A stretch of 7,465 bases of DNA, taken from a virus (taxonomy: Duplodnaviria; Heunggongvirae; Uroviricota; Caudoviricetes). The position numbers were made by a program, and so were the translations under genes. This document shows, piece after piece, positions 241 to 7,465 of this stretch. The notes under the pieces were generated by a model that ran no database searches, was not told the DNA's origin, and was given only the letters and a program-made list of their open reading frames with translations. Position 1 is the first letter of the stretch. The number at the start of each line of letters is the position of its first letter. The DNA lies in IMG/VR virus record IMGVR_UViG_2684622618_000004. One strand, given 5' to 3'.

Positions 241-808
241 GTGGCTACGCAGACTGAAGTTGCCAGGCATTTAAGTCTGACCGATCGCCAGCTTCGCAGA
301 TTGCAGAAATTGCCGGGTGCCCCGATATCGAATAAGCGAGGGCAACTGGATCTGGATGCCTGGCGCGATTTTTACATATCGTATCTGAGGAGAAGTAAAA
401 ACGATGTGCCTGATGGCGATAGCGAAGACGACTATGAGGAGAAATTGCTTATTGCCAGATGGGAACTGACAGCAGAACAGGCTGTTACACAGCAGTTAAA
501 AAANNNNNNNNNNNNNNNNNNNNNNNNNNNNNNNNNNNNNNNNNNNNNNNNNNTTAAAAAATGAGGTGTCAAAAGGAAAACTGATTGACACCGGGTTCTG
601 TATTTTTGCCCTCAGTAAGCTGGCAATGGCGTTATCCAGTACGCTTGATTCCATCCCTTTATCCATGCAGCGACAGTTTCCTGATTTAACACCGCGCCAT
701 CTTGACCATCTGAAAACCCTTATTGCTAAGGGGGCAAATCAGTGTGCGCGGGCAGGGGATAAATTACCGGATTTACTTGATGAATATATCAGAGCAACAA
801 CTGAATAA
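241..808 (+). CDS. nu1: Terminase small subunit (Nu1-like), split by an assembly gap
   Basis: GTG start at 241 with GAGG 6 nt upstream. N-terminal part (MATQTEVARHLSLTDRQLRRLQKL...) looks like a helix-turn-helix DNA-binding segment. C-terminal part (DTGFCIFALSKLAMALSSTLDSIPLSMQRQFPDLTPRHLDHLK...LPDLLDEYI) aligns with the lambda Nu1 C-terminal region (ETAFCTFVLSRIAGEIASILDGLPLSVQRRFPELENRHVDFLK...IPGLLSEYI). The frame shifts across the 504-553 N run; stop TAA at 806-808. Confidence 0.85.
504..553. other. Assembly gap (50 N) inside the small terminase gene
   Basis: Exactly 50 N. The 8-mer ttaaaaaa occurs immediately on both sides (496-503 and 554-561). Confidence 0.95.
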
Positions 809-2753
809 TATGATGAGCGCTGTCACAACTGCATTACAGCCCCTGATAAGGGCATTGCCGGTGACGCCAGTTGAATGGGCTGATCAAAATTATTATCTGC
901 CTAAAGAATCTTCATATGGTGAGGGCGAATGGAAAACGCTGCCATTCCAGATCGCCATCATGAACAGTATGGGGAATGATCAGATCCGCACTGTTAATCT
1001 GATTAAATCTGCCCGTGTTGGCTATACAAAGATGTTGCTGGGGGGGGGNNNNNNNNNNNNNNNNNNNNNNNNNNNNNNNNNNNNNNNNNNNNNNNNNNAT
1101 TTTATTGAGCATAAATCCCGAAACAGTCTGCTTTTTCAGCCCACGGATTCTGCCGCTGAAGATTTTATGAAGTCTCACGTGGAGGCGACGATTCGGAACG
1201 TGCCATGCCTGAAAGACCTTTCCCCATGGCTGGGTCGTAAACATCGTGACAATACTCTCACGCTGAAACGCTTTTCATCGGGCGTCGGTTTCTGGTGCCT
1301 GGGCGGCGCTGCCGCCAAAAACTACCGTGAAAAATCCGTTGACGTGGTCTGCTATGACGAACTTTCCTCGTTCGAGCCGGATGTCGAAAAAGAGGGCTCG
1401 CCAACCCTGCTGGGGGATAAGCGTATTGAGGGGTCGGTGTGGCCAAAATCCATTCGCGGCTCGACGCCTAAAATCAAAGGCACCTGCCAGATCGAAAAAG
1501 CCGCTAACGAGTCGGCGCATTTTATGCGTTTTTATGTGCCCTGCCCGCACTGTGGGGAGGCGCAGTATCTGAAATTTGGCGATGAGTCCACGCCTTTTGG
1601 GCTTAAATGGGAGAAGGACAGCCCTGAAAGTGTTTTCTACCTCTGTGAACATCATGGCTGCGTGATCCATCAGTCTGAACTGGACCAGAGCAACGGGCGG
1701 TGGATCTGTGAAAACACGGGCATGTGGACCCGTGACGGTCTGACGTTTTTCAGCGCCCGGGGTGATGAAATTCCGCCGCCGCGCTCCATCATGTTCCATA
1801 TCTGGACGGCGTACAGTCCGTTCACCACCTGGGTACAGATTGTCTATGACTGGCTGGATGCACTGAAAGATCCCAACGGCCTGAAAACCTTTGTGAACAC
1901 CACGCTGGGCGAGACCTGGGAAGAGGCCGTGGGCGAAAAACTCGATCACCAGGTACTGATGGATAAGGTGGTGCGTTACACGGCGGCGGTGCCTGCCCGG
2001 GTGGTTTATCTGACGGCGGGCATTGACTCGCAGCGAAACCGTTTTGAGATGTATGTCTGGGGATGGGCTCCGGGAGAGGAAGCCTTTCTGGTGGATAAAA
2101 TCATCATTATGGGGCGTCCTGATGAGGAAGAGACGCTGTTACGTGTGGATGCGGCGATCAACAAAAAATACCGCCATGCGGATGGCACCGAAATGACTAT
2201 TTCCCGTGTCTGCTGGGACACCGGGGGGATCGATGGTGAAATTGTTTATCAGAGATCAAAAAAACACGGTGTTTTCCGGGTGCTGCCGGTAAAAGGCGCA
2301 TCTGTCTATGGCAAGCCGGTGATCACCATGCCAAAAACCCGCAATCAGCGGGGCGTGTATCTGTGTGAAGTGGGAACGGACACCGCAAAAGAAATTCTCT
2401 ATGCCCGTATGAAAGCCGATCCCTCGCCTGCGGATGAAGCCACGTCGTATGCCATCCGTTTTCCTGATGATCCGGAGATTTTTTCGCAGACAGAGGCGCA
2501 GCAACTGGTGGCGGAAGAGCTGGTGGAGAAGTGGGAAAAAGGAAAGATGCGTCTGCTGTGGGATAACAAAAAGCGGCGTAACGAAGCGCTGGACTGCCTG
2601 GTGTATGCCTACGCGGCATTACGTGTGTCCGTGCAACGCTGGCAGCTTGATCTGGCTGTACTGGCAAAATCCCGGGAAGAAGAGACGACCCGGCCAACCC
2701 TGAAAGAACTGGCAGCGAAGCTGTCCGGAGGAGTGAATGGTTACAGTCGCTGA
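780..2753 (+). CDS. A: Terminase large subunit (gpA-like; packaging ATPase and cos endonuclease)
   Basis: ATG at 780 gives MNISEQQLNN..., matching the lambda gpA N-terminus MNISNSQVN. Long collinear similarity follows (VEWADQNYYLPKESSYGEGEWKTLPFQIAIMNSMG, IKSARVGYTKMLLG, GDKRIEGSVWPKSIRGSTPK, FMRFYVPCPHCGEAQYLKFGD, ICWDTGGID, KKRRNEALDCLVYA). It overlaps the Nu1-like stop by 29 nt and contains the 1049-1098 N run. Confidence 0.95.
   Translation: MNISEQQLNNMMSAVTTALQPLIRALPVTPVEWADQNYYLPKESSYGEGEWKTLPFQIAIMNSMGNDQIRTVNLIKSARVGYTKMLLGGXXXXXXXXXXXXXXXXXXFIEHKSRNSLLFQPTDSAAEDFMKSHVEATIRNVPCLKDLSPWLGRKHRDNTLTLKRFSSGVGFWCLGGAAAKNYREKSVDVVCYDELSSFEPDVEKEGSPTLLGDKRIEGSVWPKSIRGSTPKIKGTCQIEKAANESAHFMRFYVPCPHCGEAQYLKFGDESTPFGLKWEKDSPESVFYLCEHHGCVIHQSELDQSNGRWICENTGMWTRDGLTFFSARGDEIPPPRSIMFHIWTAYSPFTTWVQIVYDWLDALKDPNGLKTFVNTTLGETWEEAVGEKLDHQVLMDKVVRYTAAVPARVVYLTAGIDSQRNRFEMYVWGWAPGEEAFLVDKIIIMGRPDEEETLLRVDAAINKKYRHADGTEMTISRVCWDTGGIDGEIVYQRSKKHGVFRVLPVKGASVYGKPVITMPKTRNQRGVYLCEVGTDTAKEILYARMKADPSPADEATSYAIRFPDDPEIFSQTEAQQLVAEELVEKWEKGKMRLLWDNKKRRNEALDCLVYAYAALRVSVQRWQLDLAVLAKSREEETTRPTLKELAAKLSGGVNGYSR
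1049..1098. other. Assembly gap (50 N) inside the large terminase gene, preceded by a poly-G run
   Basis: Nine G at 1040-1048 run directly into 50 N. The lambda gpA alignment (MLLGVYAYFIEHK versus MLLGG...FIEHK) indicates only ~3-4 codons are truly missing. Confidence 0.95.
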
Positions 2754-2943
2754 ACTGCAGGCGCTGCGTCAGGCGCGCCTTGATTTATTAACCGGTAAAC
2801 GGGTGGTGTCTGTCCAGAAAGATGGTCGCAGAATTGAATATACGGCGGCTTCTCTGGATGAGCTTAACCGGGCGATCAATGATGCGGAGTCGGTACTGGG
2901 GACAACCCGGCGTCGCCGTCGTCCGCTGGGAGTGAGGTTATGA
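2737..2943 (+). CDS. W: Head-tail joining / head completion protein (gpW-like), 68 aa
   Basis: MVTVAELQALRQARLDLLTGKRVVSVQKDGRRIEYTAASLDEL aligns with lambda gpW (..[35 protein letters not shown]), same 68-aa length. GGAGG precedes the ATG; overlaps the terminase stop by 17 nt. Confidence 0.9.
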   Translation: MVTVAELQALRQARLDLLTGKRVVSVQKDGRRIEYTAASLDELNRAINDAESVLGTTRRRRRPLGVRL

Positions 2944-4532
2944 AACGAACGCCTGTCCTGATTGATGTGAACGGCGTTCCGCTTCGTGAGAGTCTCAGCT
3001 ACAACGGGGGCGGTGCAGGATTTGGCGGGCAAATGGCGGAGTGGTTGCCACCGGCGCAGAGTGCCGATGCGGCCCTGCTGCCCGCGTTGCGTCTGGGGAA
3101 TGCCCGGGCAGATGATCTGGTGCGCAATAACGGAATAGCGGCCAATGCGGTGGCACTGCATAAGGATCACATTGTCGGGCATATGTTTCTTATCAGCTAC
3201 CGTCCGAACTGGCGCTGGCTGGGGATGCGGGAGACCGCAGCAAAAAGCTTTGTCGATGAGGTGGAGGCGGCCTGGTCGGAATACGCCGAAGGGATGTCTG
3301 GCGAGATCGACGTGGAAGGAAAACGCACGTTCACGGAATTTATCCGTGAAGGTGTGGGCGTTCATGCGTTTAACGGCGAAATCTTTGTGCAGCCGGTCTG
3401 GGATACGGAAACCACGCAGTTATTCCGTACGCGTTTTAAAGCCGTGAGTCCGAAACGGGTGGACACGCCAGGACACGGTATGGGGAACCGTTTTCTGCGG
3501 GCCGGGGTGGAGGTCGATCGATATGGCCGTGCCGTTGCGTACCATATCTGTGAGGATGATTTTCCTCGCTCCGGGAGTGGACGATGGGAACGGATCCCGC
3601 GTGAACTTCCCACCGGGCGTCCGGCCATGCTGCATATTTTCGAGCCGGTGGAGGACGGGCAGACCCGTGGGGCCAACCAGTTTTACAGCGTCATGGAACG
3701 GCTGAAGATGCTCGATTCCCTGCAGGCAACACAGCTTCAGTCGGCCATTGTGAAAGCCATGTATGCAGCGACGATTGAAAGTGACCTTGATACCGAAAAG
3801 GCCTTTGAATATATCGCCGGTGCGCCGCAGGGGCAGAAGGATAATCCGCTTATTAATATTCTGGAGAAGTTCTCCAGCTGGTATGACACGAATAACGTGA
3901 CGCTGGGTGGTGTCAAAATTCCGCACCTTTTCCCCGGGGATGATCTGAAACTACAGACTGCGCAGGATTCAGACAATGGATTTTCGGCGCTTGAACAGGC
4001 GCTGCTGCGGTATATCGCCGCCGGTCTTGGCGTTTCCTACGAACAGTTGTCCCGTGATTACTCGAAGGTCAGTTATTCAAGTGCCAGGGCCTCTGCCAAT
4101 GAGTCGTGGCGCTATTTTATGGGGCGGCGAAAATTTATTGCGGCCCGGCTGGCCACGCAGATGTTTTCCTACTGGCTGGAAGAGGCACTTCTTCGGGGGA
4201 TTATCCGTCCGCCACGGGCGCGTTTTGATTTTTATCAGGCGCGATCAGCCTGGTCACGGGCAGAGTGGATTGGTGCCGGAAGAATGGCCATTGACGGGCT
4301 CAAGGAGGTTCAGGAATCGGTGATGCGCATTGAGGCCGGACTGAGCACGTATGAGAAAGAGCCGGCGCTGATGGGCGAGGATTATCAGGACATTTTCCGC
4401 CAGCAGGTCAGGGAATCTGCAGAGCGGCAAAAAGCCGGACTCTCACGTCCGGTGTGGATAGCGCAGGCGTATCAGCAGCAGATAGCGGAGAGTCGCAGGC
4501 CGGAAGAGGAGACAACACCCCGTGAGACGTAA
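2940..4532 (+). CDS. B: Portal protein (gpB-like), 530 aa
   Basis: ATGA start/stop overlap with W at 2940-2943. Size (lambda gpB is ~533 aa) and position between W and C fit; I cannot align residue by residue from memory, so the call rests mainly on synteny and length. Confidence 0.85.
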   Translation: MKRTPVLIDVNGVPLRESLSYNGGGAGFGGQMAEWLPPAQSADAALLPALRLGNARADDLVRNNGIAANAVALHKDHIVGHMFLISYRPNWRWLGMRETAAKSFVDEVEAAWSEYAEGMSGEIDVEGKRTFTEFIREGVGVHAFNGEIFVQPVWDTETTQLFRTRFKAVSPKRVDTPGHGMGNRFLRAGVEVDRYGRAVAYHICEDDFPRSGSGRWERIPRELPTGRPAMLHIFEPVEDGQTRGANQFYSVMERLKMLDSLQATQLQSAIVKAMYAATIESDLDTEKAFEYIAGAPQGQKDNPLINILEKFSSWYDTNNVTLGGVKIPHLFPGDDLKLQTAQDSDNGFSALEQALLRYIAAGLGVSYEQLSRDYSKVSYSSARASANESWRYFMGRRKFIAARLATQMFSYWLEEALLRGIIRPPRARFDFYQARSAWSRAEWIGAGRMAIDGLKEVQESVMRIEAGLSTYEKEPALMGEDYQDIFRQQVRESAERQKAGLSRPVWIAQAYQQQIAESRRPEEETTPRET

Positions 4533-6027
4533 TCTTTCACACATTATTGCCGCAGCATTCAATGAACCGCTGCTTCTGGAGCCCGCCTATGCGCGGGTTT
4601 TCTTTTGCGCGCTCGGGCGCGAGATGGGGGCAGCAAGTCTTTCGGTACCACAGCAGCAGGTACAGCTTGATGCTCCCGGAATGCTGGCTGAAACGGACGA
4701 GTACATGGCCGGAGGTAAACGACCGGCCCGTGTTTACCGGGTGGTGAACGGTATTGCTGTACTGCCGGTGACCGGCACGCTGGTGCACCGGCTGGGGGGT
4801 ATGCGGCCATTTTCCGGAATGACAGGCTATGACGGCATTGTCGCCTGTCTTCAGCAGGCAATGGCGGATAGCCAGGTGCGGGGCGTACTGCTGGACATTG
4901 ACAGTCCGGGCGGGCAGGCCGCCGGCGCGTTTGACTGCGCTGACATGATTTACCGCCTCCGTCAGCAGAAGCCGGTCTGGGCACTGTGCAATGACACGGC
5001 CTGTTCTGCAGCCATGCTGCTGGCGTCGGCCTGCTCCCGACGGCTGGTTACCCAGACATCCCGTATCGGCTCCATTGGCGTGATGATGAGCCATGTCAGC
5101 TATGCCGGTCATCTGGCGCAGGCCGGTGTGGATATCACGCTGATTTACTCAGGGGCGCACAAGGTGGATGGCAATCAGTTTGAAGCCTTACCGGCAGAGG
5201 TTCGCCAGAACATGCAGCAGCGCATTGATGCGGCGCGCCGGATGTTTGCCGAAAAAGTGGCCATGTTTACCGGTCTGTCTGTTGATGCCGTCACGGGAAC
5301 AGAGGCCGCCGTTTTTGAAGGTCAGTCCGGCATTGATGCCGGGCTGGCGGATGAATTAGTCAATGCGTCGGATGCCATCAGTGTGATGGCCACGGCGCTG
5401 AACAGTAATGTCAGAGGAGGCACTATGCCGCAATTAACTGCAACGGAAGCCGCCGCGCAGGAGAACCAGCGAGTGATGGGGATCCTGACATGCCAGGAAG
5501 CGAAAGGACGTGAACAGCTTGCCACGATGCTGGCAGGACAACAGGGCATGAGCGTTGAACAGGCCCGGGCGATTCTGGCCGCGGCGGCACCGCAGCAGCC
5601 GGTGGCATCCACGCAGAGTGAAGCCGATCGCATTATGGCGTGTGAAGAAGCGAACGGTCGTGAACAACTGGCGGCAACGCTGGCGGCGATGCCGGAGATG
5701 ACGGTGGAAAAAGCCCGCCCGATCCTGGCTGCTTCACCGCAGGCGGATGCCGGACCCTCACTCCGTGATCAGATCATGGCACTGGATGAGGCAAAAGGGG
5801 CTGAGGCGCAGGCTGAACAGCTGGCTGCCTGCCCGGGAATGACTGTGGAGAGCGCCCGGGCTGTGCTGGCTGCGGGATCAGGTAAGGCAGAACCGGTCTC
5901 TGCATCCACAACCGCCCTGTTTGAACGCATCATGGCGAACCATTCACCGGCTGCGGTACAGGGTGGCGTGCCACAGACGTCAGCAGACGGTGATGCGGAC
6001 GTGAAAATGCTCATGGCCATGCCATGA
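4522..6027 (+). CDS. C: Head maturation protease / minor capsid protein (gpC-like, S49 ClpP/SppA-fold family) with a C-terminal scaffold region
   Basis: GTG start at 4522 (11-nt overlap with the portal stop). AFNEPLLLEPAYARVFFCAL, NGIAVLPVTGTLV, MTGYDGIVACLQQA, GAFDCADMI, KPVWALCND, SRRLVTQTSRIGSIGVMM, ITLIYSGAHKVDGN and GLADELVNASDAISVM all align with lambda gpC. The C-terminal third is repeat-rich. Confidence 0.9.
   Translation: MRRNLSHIIAAAFNEPLLLEPAYARVFFCALGREMGAASLSVPQQQVQLDAPGMLAETDEYMAGGKRPARVYRVVNGIAVLPVTGTLVHRLGGMRPFSGMTGYDGIVACLQQAMADSQVRGVLLDIDSPGGQAAGAFDCADMIYRLRQQKPVWALCNDTACSAAMLLASACSRRLVTQTSRIGSIGVMMSHVSYAGHLAQAGVDITLIYSGAHKVDGNQFEALPAEVRQNMQQRIDAARRMFAEKVAMFTGLSVDAVTGTEAAVFEGQSGIDAGLADELVNASDAISVMATALNSNVRGGTMPQLTATEAAAQENQRVMGILTCQEAKGREQLATMLAGQQGMSVEQARAILAAAAPQQPVASTQSEADRIMACEEANGREQLAATLAAMPEMTVEKARPILAASPQADAGPSLRDQIMALDEAKGAEAQAEQLAACPGMTVESARAVLAAGSGKAEPVSASTTALFERIMANHSPAAVQGGVPQTSADGDADVKMLMAMP
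5425..6027 (+). CDS. Nu3: Nested in-frame scaffold protein (Nu3-like), sharing frame and stop with C
   Basis: Internal ATG at 5425 in the C frame, preceded by AGGAGG (5415-5420). Product MPQLTATEAAAQENQRVMGILTCQEAKGREQ... is ~200 aa, matching the lambda arrangement in which Nu3 is translated from within the 3' part of C. Confidence 0.6.
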   Translation: MPQLTATEAAAQENQRVMGILTCQEAKGREQLATMLAGQQGMSVEQARAILAAAAPQQPVASTQSEADRIMACEEANGREQLAATLAAMPEMTVEKARPILAASPQADAGPSLRDQIMALDEAKGAEAQAEQLAACPGMTVESARAVLAAGSGKAEPVSASTTALFERIMANHSPAAVQGGVPQTSADGDADVKMLMAMP

Positions 6028-6063
6028 AGTCAGTGCTGACCATCAACAGGAGGTTTTTACAAT

Positions 6064-6411
6064 ATGGTAACGAAAAACATCACTGAACAGCGTGCGGAAG
6101 TACGTATTTTTGCCGGTAATGATCCGGCTCATACAGCCACAGGCAGCAGCGGGATTTCCTCGGCAACACCGGCACTGACGCCCCTGATGCTGGATGAAGC
6201 CAGCGGGAAACTGGTGGTCTGGGACGGACAGAAAGCCGGTAGTGCAGTTGGCATACTGGTACTGCCGCTTGAAGGCACAGAGACGGTACTGACCTATTAC
6301 AAGTCGGGGACCTTTGCGACGGAGGCAATCCGCTGGCCTGAAAGTGTGGATGAACACAAAAAGGCAAATGCCTTTGCCGGCAGTGCCCTGAGTCACGCGG
6401 CGCTGCCGTAA
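6064..6411 (+). CDS. D: Head decoration protein (gpD-like), 115 aa
   Basis: AGGAGG at 6049-6054, ATG at 6064. DPAHTATGSSG...TPLMLDEASGKLVVWDG...AVGILV...YYKSGTF...AFAGSA aligns with lambda gpD (DPAHTATAPGG...TPLMLDTSSRKLVAWDG...AVGILA...FYKSGTF...AFAGTA). Confidence 0.9.
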   Translation: MVTKNITEQRAEVRIFAGNDPAHTATGSSGISSATPALTPLMLDEASGKLVVWDGQKAGSAVGILVLPLEGTETVLTYYKSGTFATEAIRWPESVDEHKKANAFAGSALSHAALP

Positions 6412-6420
6412 CACGTTATC

Positions 6421-6438
6421 AGGCCACCGCGGTGGCCT
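6421..6438. other. Perfect 18-bp palindrome (possible stem-loop) in the D-E intergenic region
   Basis: aggccaccgcggtggcct is its own reverse complement. It lies 10 nt after the D stop and 31 nt before the E start, and is not followed by a clear T-tract. Confidence 0.5.
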
Positions 6439-6468
6439 GACTGATTTCTGAATGAAAGGAACTGATTT

Positions 6469-6735
6469 ATGGGATTGTTTACGACCCGCCAGTTACTCGG
6501 TTATACCGAACAAAAAGTGAAATTTCGTGCGCTGTTTCTGGAGCTGTTTTTCCGCCGTACGGTGAATTTCCATACCGAAGAGGTGATGCTGGACAAAATT
6601 ACCGGAAAAACGCCGGTGGCGGCCTATGTCTCCCCGGTTGTTGAAGGAAAAGTGCTGCGTCATCGCGGTGGTGAAACCCGCGTGTTACGTCCGGGCTACG
6701 TCAAGCCGAAACACGAATTCCCCTGGAGCCGGTAA
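6469..6735 (+). pseudogene. E: Major capsid protein gene (gpE-like), 5' fragment only (88 codons)
   Basis: N-terminus MGLFTTRQLLGYTEQKVKFRALFLELFFR...[31 protein letters not shown] aligns with lambda gpE residues 1-~84 (MSMYTTAQLLAANEQKFKFDPLFLRLFFR...[31 protein letters not shown]). Similarity stops after KPKHE and the frame ends 5 codons later (TAA 6733-6735); lambda gpE is ~341 aa. Confidence 0.8.
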
Positions 6736-7457
6736 AAGGAGCCGGTACCACCCTGTGGGTTTATAACGGTCAGGGTGACGCCTATGCAAACCCGTTGTCA
6801 GACGATGACTGGCAGCGACTGGCTAAGGTGAAGGATCTGACGCCGGGCGAGATGACGGCAGAATCCTACGATGATAACTACCTGGATGATGAAGACGCGG
6901 ACTGGACCGCGACCGGGCAGGGGCAGAAATCTGCAGGTGATACCAGTTTTACGCTGGCCTGGAAACCGGGAGAGGAAGGCCAGAAAGGGCTTATAGGCTG
7001 GTTTGAAAGCGGCGATGTCCGGGCCTATAAAATCCGTTTTCCGAATGGCACGGTGGATGTGTTTCGTGGCTGGGTCAGCAGTATCGGTAAGGCCGTGACG
7101 GCGAAAGAAGTGATCACCCGCACGGTGAAAGTCACTAACGTGGGTAAACCTTCTGTAGCGGAAGAACGCAGCAAAATTACGCCGGTCAGTGCGATTAAGG
7201 TGACGCCGACATCCGGTACGGTGGCAAAAGGGAAAACAACCACCCTGACGGTTTCTTTTGAGCCGGAAAGTGCAACAGACAAGACGTTCAGAGCGGTTTC
7301 CGCCGATCCGTCGAAAGCCACCATTAGTGTGAAAGATATGACAATTACGGTAAACGGCGTGGCGACAGGTAAGGTGCAGATCCCTGTGGTGAGCGGAAAT
7401 GGTCAGTTCGCCGCAGTGGCTGAAGTCACCGTTACTGAAGCGGGCGCTGCAGGGTAA
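6729..7457 (+). pseudogene. V: Major tail protein gene (gpV-like) lacking its native 5' end; first in-frame ATG at 6795
   Basis: From 6729 this frame reads [78 protein letters not shown]...[42 protein letters not shown]...MTITVNGVA, near-collinear with lambda gpV from residue ~9 to the end. A TGA lies in-frame at 6672-6674 and no ATG or GTG lies between it and 6795. Stop TAA at 7455-7457. Confidence 0.8.
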
Positions 7458-7465
7458 ACGGAGGT

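Follow-up and report, generated by a model that had tools for sequence, protein, structure and literature searches.

Does a lambdoid prophage occur in nature in which the gene of the major capsid protein (E) runs directly into the gene of the major tail protein (V), or is such an arrangement created by sequencing and assembly? The question is raised by the window, i.e. the whole stretch of 7,465 nucleotides analysed here, in which a capsid gene breaks off after 84 codons and tail gene sequence follows immediately in a different reading frame. Overall the best explanation, and a very probable one, is a fossil deletion in the O157:H7 lambdoid prophage Sp4/CP-933M, the scar of which is also present in Sp14/CP-933U. 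The scar is already known from genome annotation (as a partial pseudogene in RefSeq) and from PMC2669165.

Packaging and head module

According to open reading frames (ORFs) and Pfam, the window constitutes the left end of a late region of the lambda/phage 21 type. No tandem repeats were detected in it with TRF. Features are listed below; where no source is given, they follow from ORFs, Pfam and the EDL933/Sakai annotation.

95-105 (inverted), 153-163 and 183-193 (direct): three AACCGGACATG repeats of the cos region, between the cos end and the nu1 start (repeat scan)
241-503 and 554-808, plus strand: nu1', small terminase gene, split by a gap of 50 N (ORF list, EDL933/Sakai annotation)
504-553: gap 1, 50 N in the nu1-like gene, standing in for ISEc8 (IS66 family, approximately 2.44 kb)
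780-2753, plus strand: terminase large subunit
1049-1098: gap 2, 50 N in the large terminase gene, in place of CGGGT (5 bp), which follows a natural run of nine Gs
2737-2943, plus strand: W (gpW)
2940-4532, plus strand: portal protein, lambda family
4522-6027, plus strand: S49 protease/scaffold
6064-6411, plus strand: decoration protein of lambda-D type (Pfam HDPD)
6469-6735, plus strand: E', pseudogene, truncated major capsid gene of 88 aa (ORF list, Pfam, RefSeq)
6720-7457, plus strand: V', major tail tube gene with complete body, but devoid of the native Shine-Dalgarno motif (SD; GAGGA), the ATG and codons 1-5

The layout of the three AACCGGACATG copies is similar to that of the R3/R2/R1 terminase-binding sites in cosB of lambda- and 21-type phages. 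A further direct repeat, TTG(T/C)GAGGTGAG, is located at 210-238, immediately 5' of the GTG start of nu1.

Both gaps are more than 5 kb away from the capsid/tail junction. Gap 1 corresponds to 2,438 bp in EDL933 and is bordered on both sides by an 8 bp target duplication, TTAAAAAA (496-503 and 554-561), which is a single copy in the IS-free Sp14, where the window flanks of the gap overlap by these 8 bp. The Sakai annotation places ISEc8 in Sp4 exactly at this point, and a disruption of Sp4 nu1 by ISEc8 has been reported (PMC2669165). The small terminase gene of the window is therefore disrupted, and an earlier reading of the DNA from its sequence alone (the sequence-only reading), which had counted terminase among the intact genes, does not hold for the small subunit. 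At gap 2 the reading frame is kept across the missing 5 bp, and the homopolymer probably caused a dropout here during sequencing or assembly.

Over its 7,365 non-N bases, the window agrees with the Sakai prophages Sp4 and Sp14 at 100%. Taken separately, the segments 1-503, 554-1048 and 1099-7465 match Sakai Sp4 at 100% and EDL933 at 99.98-100%. Since the ISEc8 site coincides with gap 1, the window is, as far as its sequence tells, the Sp4/CP-933M copy and not that of Sp14, in a draft version with ISEc8 and the 5 bp swapped for Ns.

The capsid/tail junction

6719/6720, plus strand: deletion junction, with T6718 as the last E-specific base, T6719 common to both sides and C6720 as the first V-specific base
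6710-6719, plus strand: imperfect microhomology left of the crossover, AACACGAATT in E versus AACACCAAAT in V, 8 of 10 positions matching
6715-6720: EcoRI site GAATTC, the only one in the window (restriction scan)

E' shares approximately 97% nucleotide identity with gene 7 (E) of phage 21 and with some 20 further phages, and every one of these matches ends at 6719; up to this position, i.e. codon 84, it aligns collinearly with intact E genes of the 21 type. Codons 1-84 (6469-6720) are E-like and are followed by four out-of-frame, V-derived codons (PWSR) and the stop TAA at 6733-6735, as the sequence-only reading had described with about 84 gpE-like codons and a stop at 6735. On the other side, V' is 96-98% identical to V of phage 204576, of VT1-Sakai and of Stx phages. 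Similarity to V begins at 6710, and the sequence is unambiguously of V type from 6720. The crossover falls inside the bracket of about 6718-6728 proposed earlier, and gpV-like sequence in a different frame is present as claimed, but it starts upstream of the earlier estimate of about 6729. Truncation of V at its 5' end was likewise recognised, with a loss estimated at about nine codons; five codons are missing in comparison with the nearest intact 250-aa alleles, and the higher estimate arose because the more distant lambda V had served as comparison.

The size of the missing segment was determined with two references possessing intact modules, Escherichia coli O55:H7 DEC5B (L005) and strain 2013C-3342 (L006). 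Both indicate the absence of 2,554 bp (positions 1512-4065 of L006, equal to 9041-11594 of L005), comprising E codons 85-342, FI, FII, Z, U, and the ribosome-binding site, ATG and codons 1-5 of V. The order E-FI-FII-Z-U-V, with FI, FII, Z and U present in both references, is therefore incomplete in the window, and the earlier statement that the rest of E and the four genes following it are absent is borne out. Phage 204576 (L001) was not used for sizing, as frameshifts interrupt both its E and its V. The record (CP025907.1) is an unannotated 31.5-kb 'complete genome' in which E (2521-3470) and V (5269-5954) are split into several ORFs; these frameshifts look like sequencing errors and make the record unreliable as a reference.

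Register alignments against intact E and V of phage 204576, DEC5B and 2013C-3342 form the basis of the microhomology given above. A match of at least 8 out of 10 occurs in only 0.07% of random pairs of E and downstream positions, and the junction fits an illegitimate recombination at a short stretch of similar sequence. A role of the microhomology in the crossover is suggestive but not proven, with one base strictly shared and no perfect repeat. A search for a closer parental V, using a chimeric query of the U end and the window V (190 nt), retrieved the allele of 2013C-3342 as the best intact one (97.9%); it reads AACACCAAATCCCC, and this search yielded no V allele whose homology to E extends further at the crossover. 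In the mechanism we propose, one illegitimate recombination event would have joined codon 84 of E to codon 6 of V at the patch of 8/10 matching nucleotides, with loss of the entire 2,554 bp segment.

An illegitimate recombination may alternatively have taken place between two lambdoid phages, one contributing the region from cos to E codon 84 and the other the region from V onward, instead of within a single genome. Lambdoid prophages are mosaics, and the two sides of the junction have different nearest relatives: phage 21 and ev017 for the E side (97%), and V of 204576 and Stx phages for the V side (96-98%). The sides also differ in their identity to one and the same intact genome, e.g. 97.7% versus 91.7% for 2013C-3342. 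However, phage 204576 and O55:H7 DEC5B hold both module types in the normal order, so that a simple deletion is more parsimonious, and the outcome and the defect would be identical either way. An origin from two phages is consequently regarded as unlikely, and a deletion within one genome is retained.

The host prophages Sp4 and Sp14

Sp4 is equivalent to CP-933M and Sp14 to CP-933U (PMC2884950). In EDL933, the locus is a prophage adjoining serT and hya, carrying sodC and a tccP2 pseudogene. The window itself stops shortly past V, and this chromosomal location and cargo are read from the complete genomes that match it. Between a point approximately 690 bp upstream of where ISEc8 is inserted and the middle of gene H (tape measure), Sp4 and Sp14 of Sakai do not differ at a single position. 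Without ISEc8 this identical block spans about 10.1 kb (26697-39266 of the Sakai Sp4 sequence, L007, against the Sakai Sp14 sequence, L004), followed by an abrupt shift to 7-8% divergence at L007 39267. This limit inside H looks like a boundary of recombination or gene conversion. As the scar lies inside the block of 100% identity, we infer that the deletion occurred once. The block would afterwards have been shared between Sp4 and Sp14, in whichever direction, through homologous recombination or gene conversion.

Outside the identical block, a segment with pchA, a copy of IS629 and the genes for lysis (holin, endolysin, Rz-like) runs in the opposite direction in Sp4 (L007 22131-26637) with respect to Sp14 (L004 25311-29300). 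Its orientation in Sp4 is also opposite to that of the remaining late region, and the EDL933 copies likewise lie on the minus strand. This is a possible inversion, by which lysis would be uncoupled from late transcription.

Neither a major capsid protein nor FI, the head-completion protein FII or the tail-terminator/completion proteins Z and U are encoded by the element. On its own, the prophage would be unable to build virions. A defective prophage devoid of a major capsid protein had been proposed from the sequence alone, and both the comparison with intact relatives and the published scoring of Sp4 and Sp14 agree with it. Asadulghani et al. 2009 (Table 1) list Sp4 as defective in head, major tail and packaging (nu1::ISEc8) and Sp14 as defective in head and major tail (PMC2669165). 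After mitomycin C treatment, excised and packaged Sp4 DNA was nevertheless recovered in DNase-resistant particles, a result explained there by complementation from other prophages, in which the terminase of Sp14 acts on the identical cos (PMC2669165). Sp8, Sp10 and Sp11 are rated proficient for head functions in the same study, which makes their head genes candidate helpers.

A different reading of the same locus is that the scarred block from cos to H, gene-converted between Sp4 and Sp14, persists as a helper-dependent, satellite-like element, with V' possibly expressed at a low level. The capsid-less module of cos, terminase, portal, protease and decoration genes would then be packaged in capsids of other resident prophages, and the deletion would belong to a way of life based on piracy instead of reflecting simple decay. 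We consider this quite unlikely. With the fossil deletion as the preferred explanation, the loss explains the failure of Sp4/CP-933M and Sp14/CP-933U to produce virions of their own, and mobilisation of Sp4 (tccP2 pseudogene, sodC) and Sp14 (tccP, espJ) must depend on other O157 prophages, as published.

Remnants of the capsid and tail genes

E' matches the Pfam family Phage_cap_E (PF03864) with profile positions 1-80 of 329 only (E = 1.5e-14), short of the full-length capsid domain of about 329 positions, and is a gene fragment and not a gene for a capsid protein. Its RefSeq label in EDL933 reads 'major capsid protein, incomplete, missing C-terminus' (partial pseudogene). In the Sakai annotation, both Sp4 and Sp14 show an 88-aa 'head protein' beside a shortened 'major tail protein'.

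V is read in the -1 frame with respect to E; this frame is open from 6675 and ends at 7457. V' contains the complete lambda tail-tube domain (PF16461, 1-135 of 135, E = 2e-69) and a C-terminal Ig-like Big_2 domain (PF02368, positions 2-79 of 79). Its 5' region has neither a ribosome-binding site nor a start codon of its own: the start context of intact V, GAGGA-N6-ATG (GAGGACGATATG), has been removed, and the sequence 5' of V' is E coding sequence without SD. The following triplets are candidate starts in frame with V':

6717 (ATT), 6723 (CTG), 6753 (CTG), 6795 (TTG), 6828 (GTG) and 6852 (ATG), plus strand

SD-like motifs are absent upstream of the ATG, GTG and TTG candidates, and no SD was found upstream of ATT 6717 or CTG 6723. 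Among the candidates, only CTG 6753 is preceded by such a motif (AGGAG, 11 nt upstream). PGAP starts V' at the non-canonical ATT 6717 and reports an intact product of 246 aa (WP_029208397.1, EDL933_RS06355). The Sakai annotators chose GTG 6828, resulting in 209 aa (ECs_1111, ECs_2729), and with the two choices differing the annotated V' start amounts to a guess. A programmed -1 frameshift or an E'-V fusion was considered as well and rejected: the overlap of E' and V contains no -1 slippery heptamer (X_XXY_YYZ), and E' ends in TAA.

Considering its 5' region, we infer very little expression of V', if any. Some expression may occur, given the intact PGAP call from ATT 6717, but WP_029208397.1 is probably an over-call of a gene without its start region. 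Full functionality of the pair, with V' initiated at ATT 6717 or produced by recoding from E' and serving as a tail tube protein for other prophages, would be compatible with the complete body of V' according to Pfam, with the 246-aa PGAP call and with the invariant sequence across the genomes listed. The O157:H7 clone, however, is young, which accounts for this invariance. V' has lost its native SD and ATG, neither ATT 6717 nor CTG 6723 is served by an SD, recoding finds no slippery site before the TAA of the E' frame, the annotators disagree on the start, and the major tail has been scored as defective (PMC2669165). A functional V' thus appears very unlikely, and both reading frames are best explained as remnants of the deletion.

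Distribution of the junction among genomes

Of 5,426 complete E. coli genomes, 300 cover at least 80% of a 321 bp query spanning the junction. In all 40 genomes listed of these 300, the stretch is 100% identical, and all of those labelled with a serotype are O157. The same set of 300 was retrieved with an 81 bp junction query, which has two places in every junction-bearing genome among the matches listed. No third, E-only place for this query was present in the listed O157 genomes, which suggests that they lack a closely related intact 21-type E. The identical junction in O157 genomes including Sakai and EDL933 answers the search of related genomes proposed by the sequence-only reading.

The exact 37-nt junction is present in ten viral contigs of IMG/VR (L008-L017) and has no match among the GTDB species-representative genomes. 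Among deposited phage genomes, no record reaches 80% coverage across the junction, and E. coli O55:H7 DEC5B possesses an intact 21-type module and no junction.

The sequence-only reading had left room for a chimeric join in the assembly. That the draft contig was wrongly joined during assembly or scaffolding might be suspected from the two 50-N gaps and from the identity of Sp4 and Sp14 over about 10 kb, which a short-read assembly would collapse. The gaps are separately accounted for, by ISEc8 and by 5 bp after nine Gs, and are distant from the join. The presence of the identical junction in 300 complete genomes, among them the independently finished Sakai and EDL933, and at two places per listed genome, excludes an assembly chimera, the probability of which we regard as minimal. 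In-vitro ligation or concatenation of two EcoRI fragments, conceivable because the sole GAATTC in 7.4 kb spans the crossover, has practically no probability at all, as neither breakpoint parent has an EcoRI site (GAATTT in E, CAAATC in V, in all intact relatives examined), so that cutting and ligation could not yield the join, and the junction is found in hundreds of natural isolates. With GAATT derived from E and C from V, the EcoRI site was created by the deletion itself. A GGATCC near cos, examined as a hint of a cloning artefact, is identical in the natural Sp4, Sp14 and EDL933 copies and was dismissed.

In the collections searched, the unique 37-mer occurs only in O157-type E. coli genomes and in the ten IMG/VR contigs, and together with the EcoRI site it is a possible lineage marker. 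Beyond correct annotation, the importance of the scar is slight.

Comparison with related prophages and phages

The closest counterpart of the window is Sp4 of O157:H7 Sakai (= CP-933M), with ISEc8 at the same point in nu1, the same E' (ECs_1110) and V' (ECs_1111), and no sequence difference. Sp14 of Sakai (= CP-933U), located at serU with tccP/espJ, has the identical E'-V' junction (ECs_2730/ECs_2729) at 100% identity, but differs from the window in its intact nu1 without ISEc8.

Among intact relatives, the head gene cluster of phage 21 (M81255 / OL657228) and the modules of DEC5B and 2013C-3342 share the gene order cos, 1, 2, W-like, portal, protease/scaffold, shp/D, 7/E. These 21-type modules are approximately 97% identical to the window at the nucleotide level up to E codon 84. 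They continue with a complete E of 342 aa, FI, FII, Z, U and a V of 250 aa with its own SD and ATG. The region from E to V of lambda has a homologous architecture with the same Pfam families (Phage_cap_E, HDPD, Phage_TTP_12 + Big_2). Lambda is a more distant relative, its V showing about 76% nucleotide identity to the V part of the window, and unlike the window it possesses all genes between E and V.
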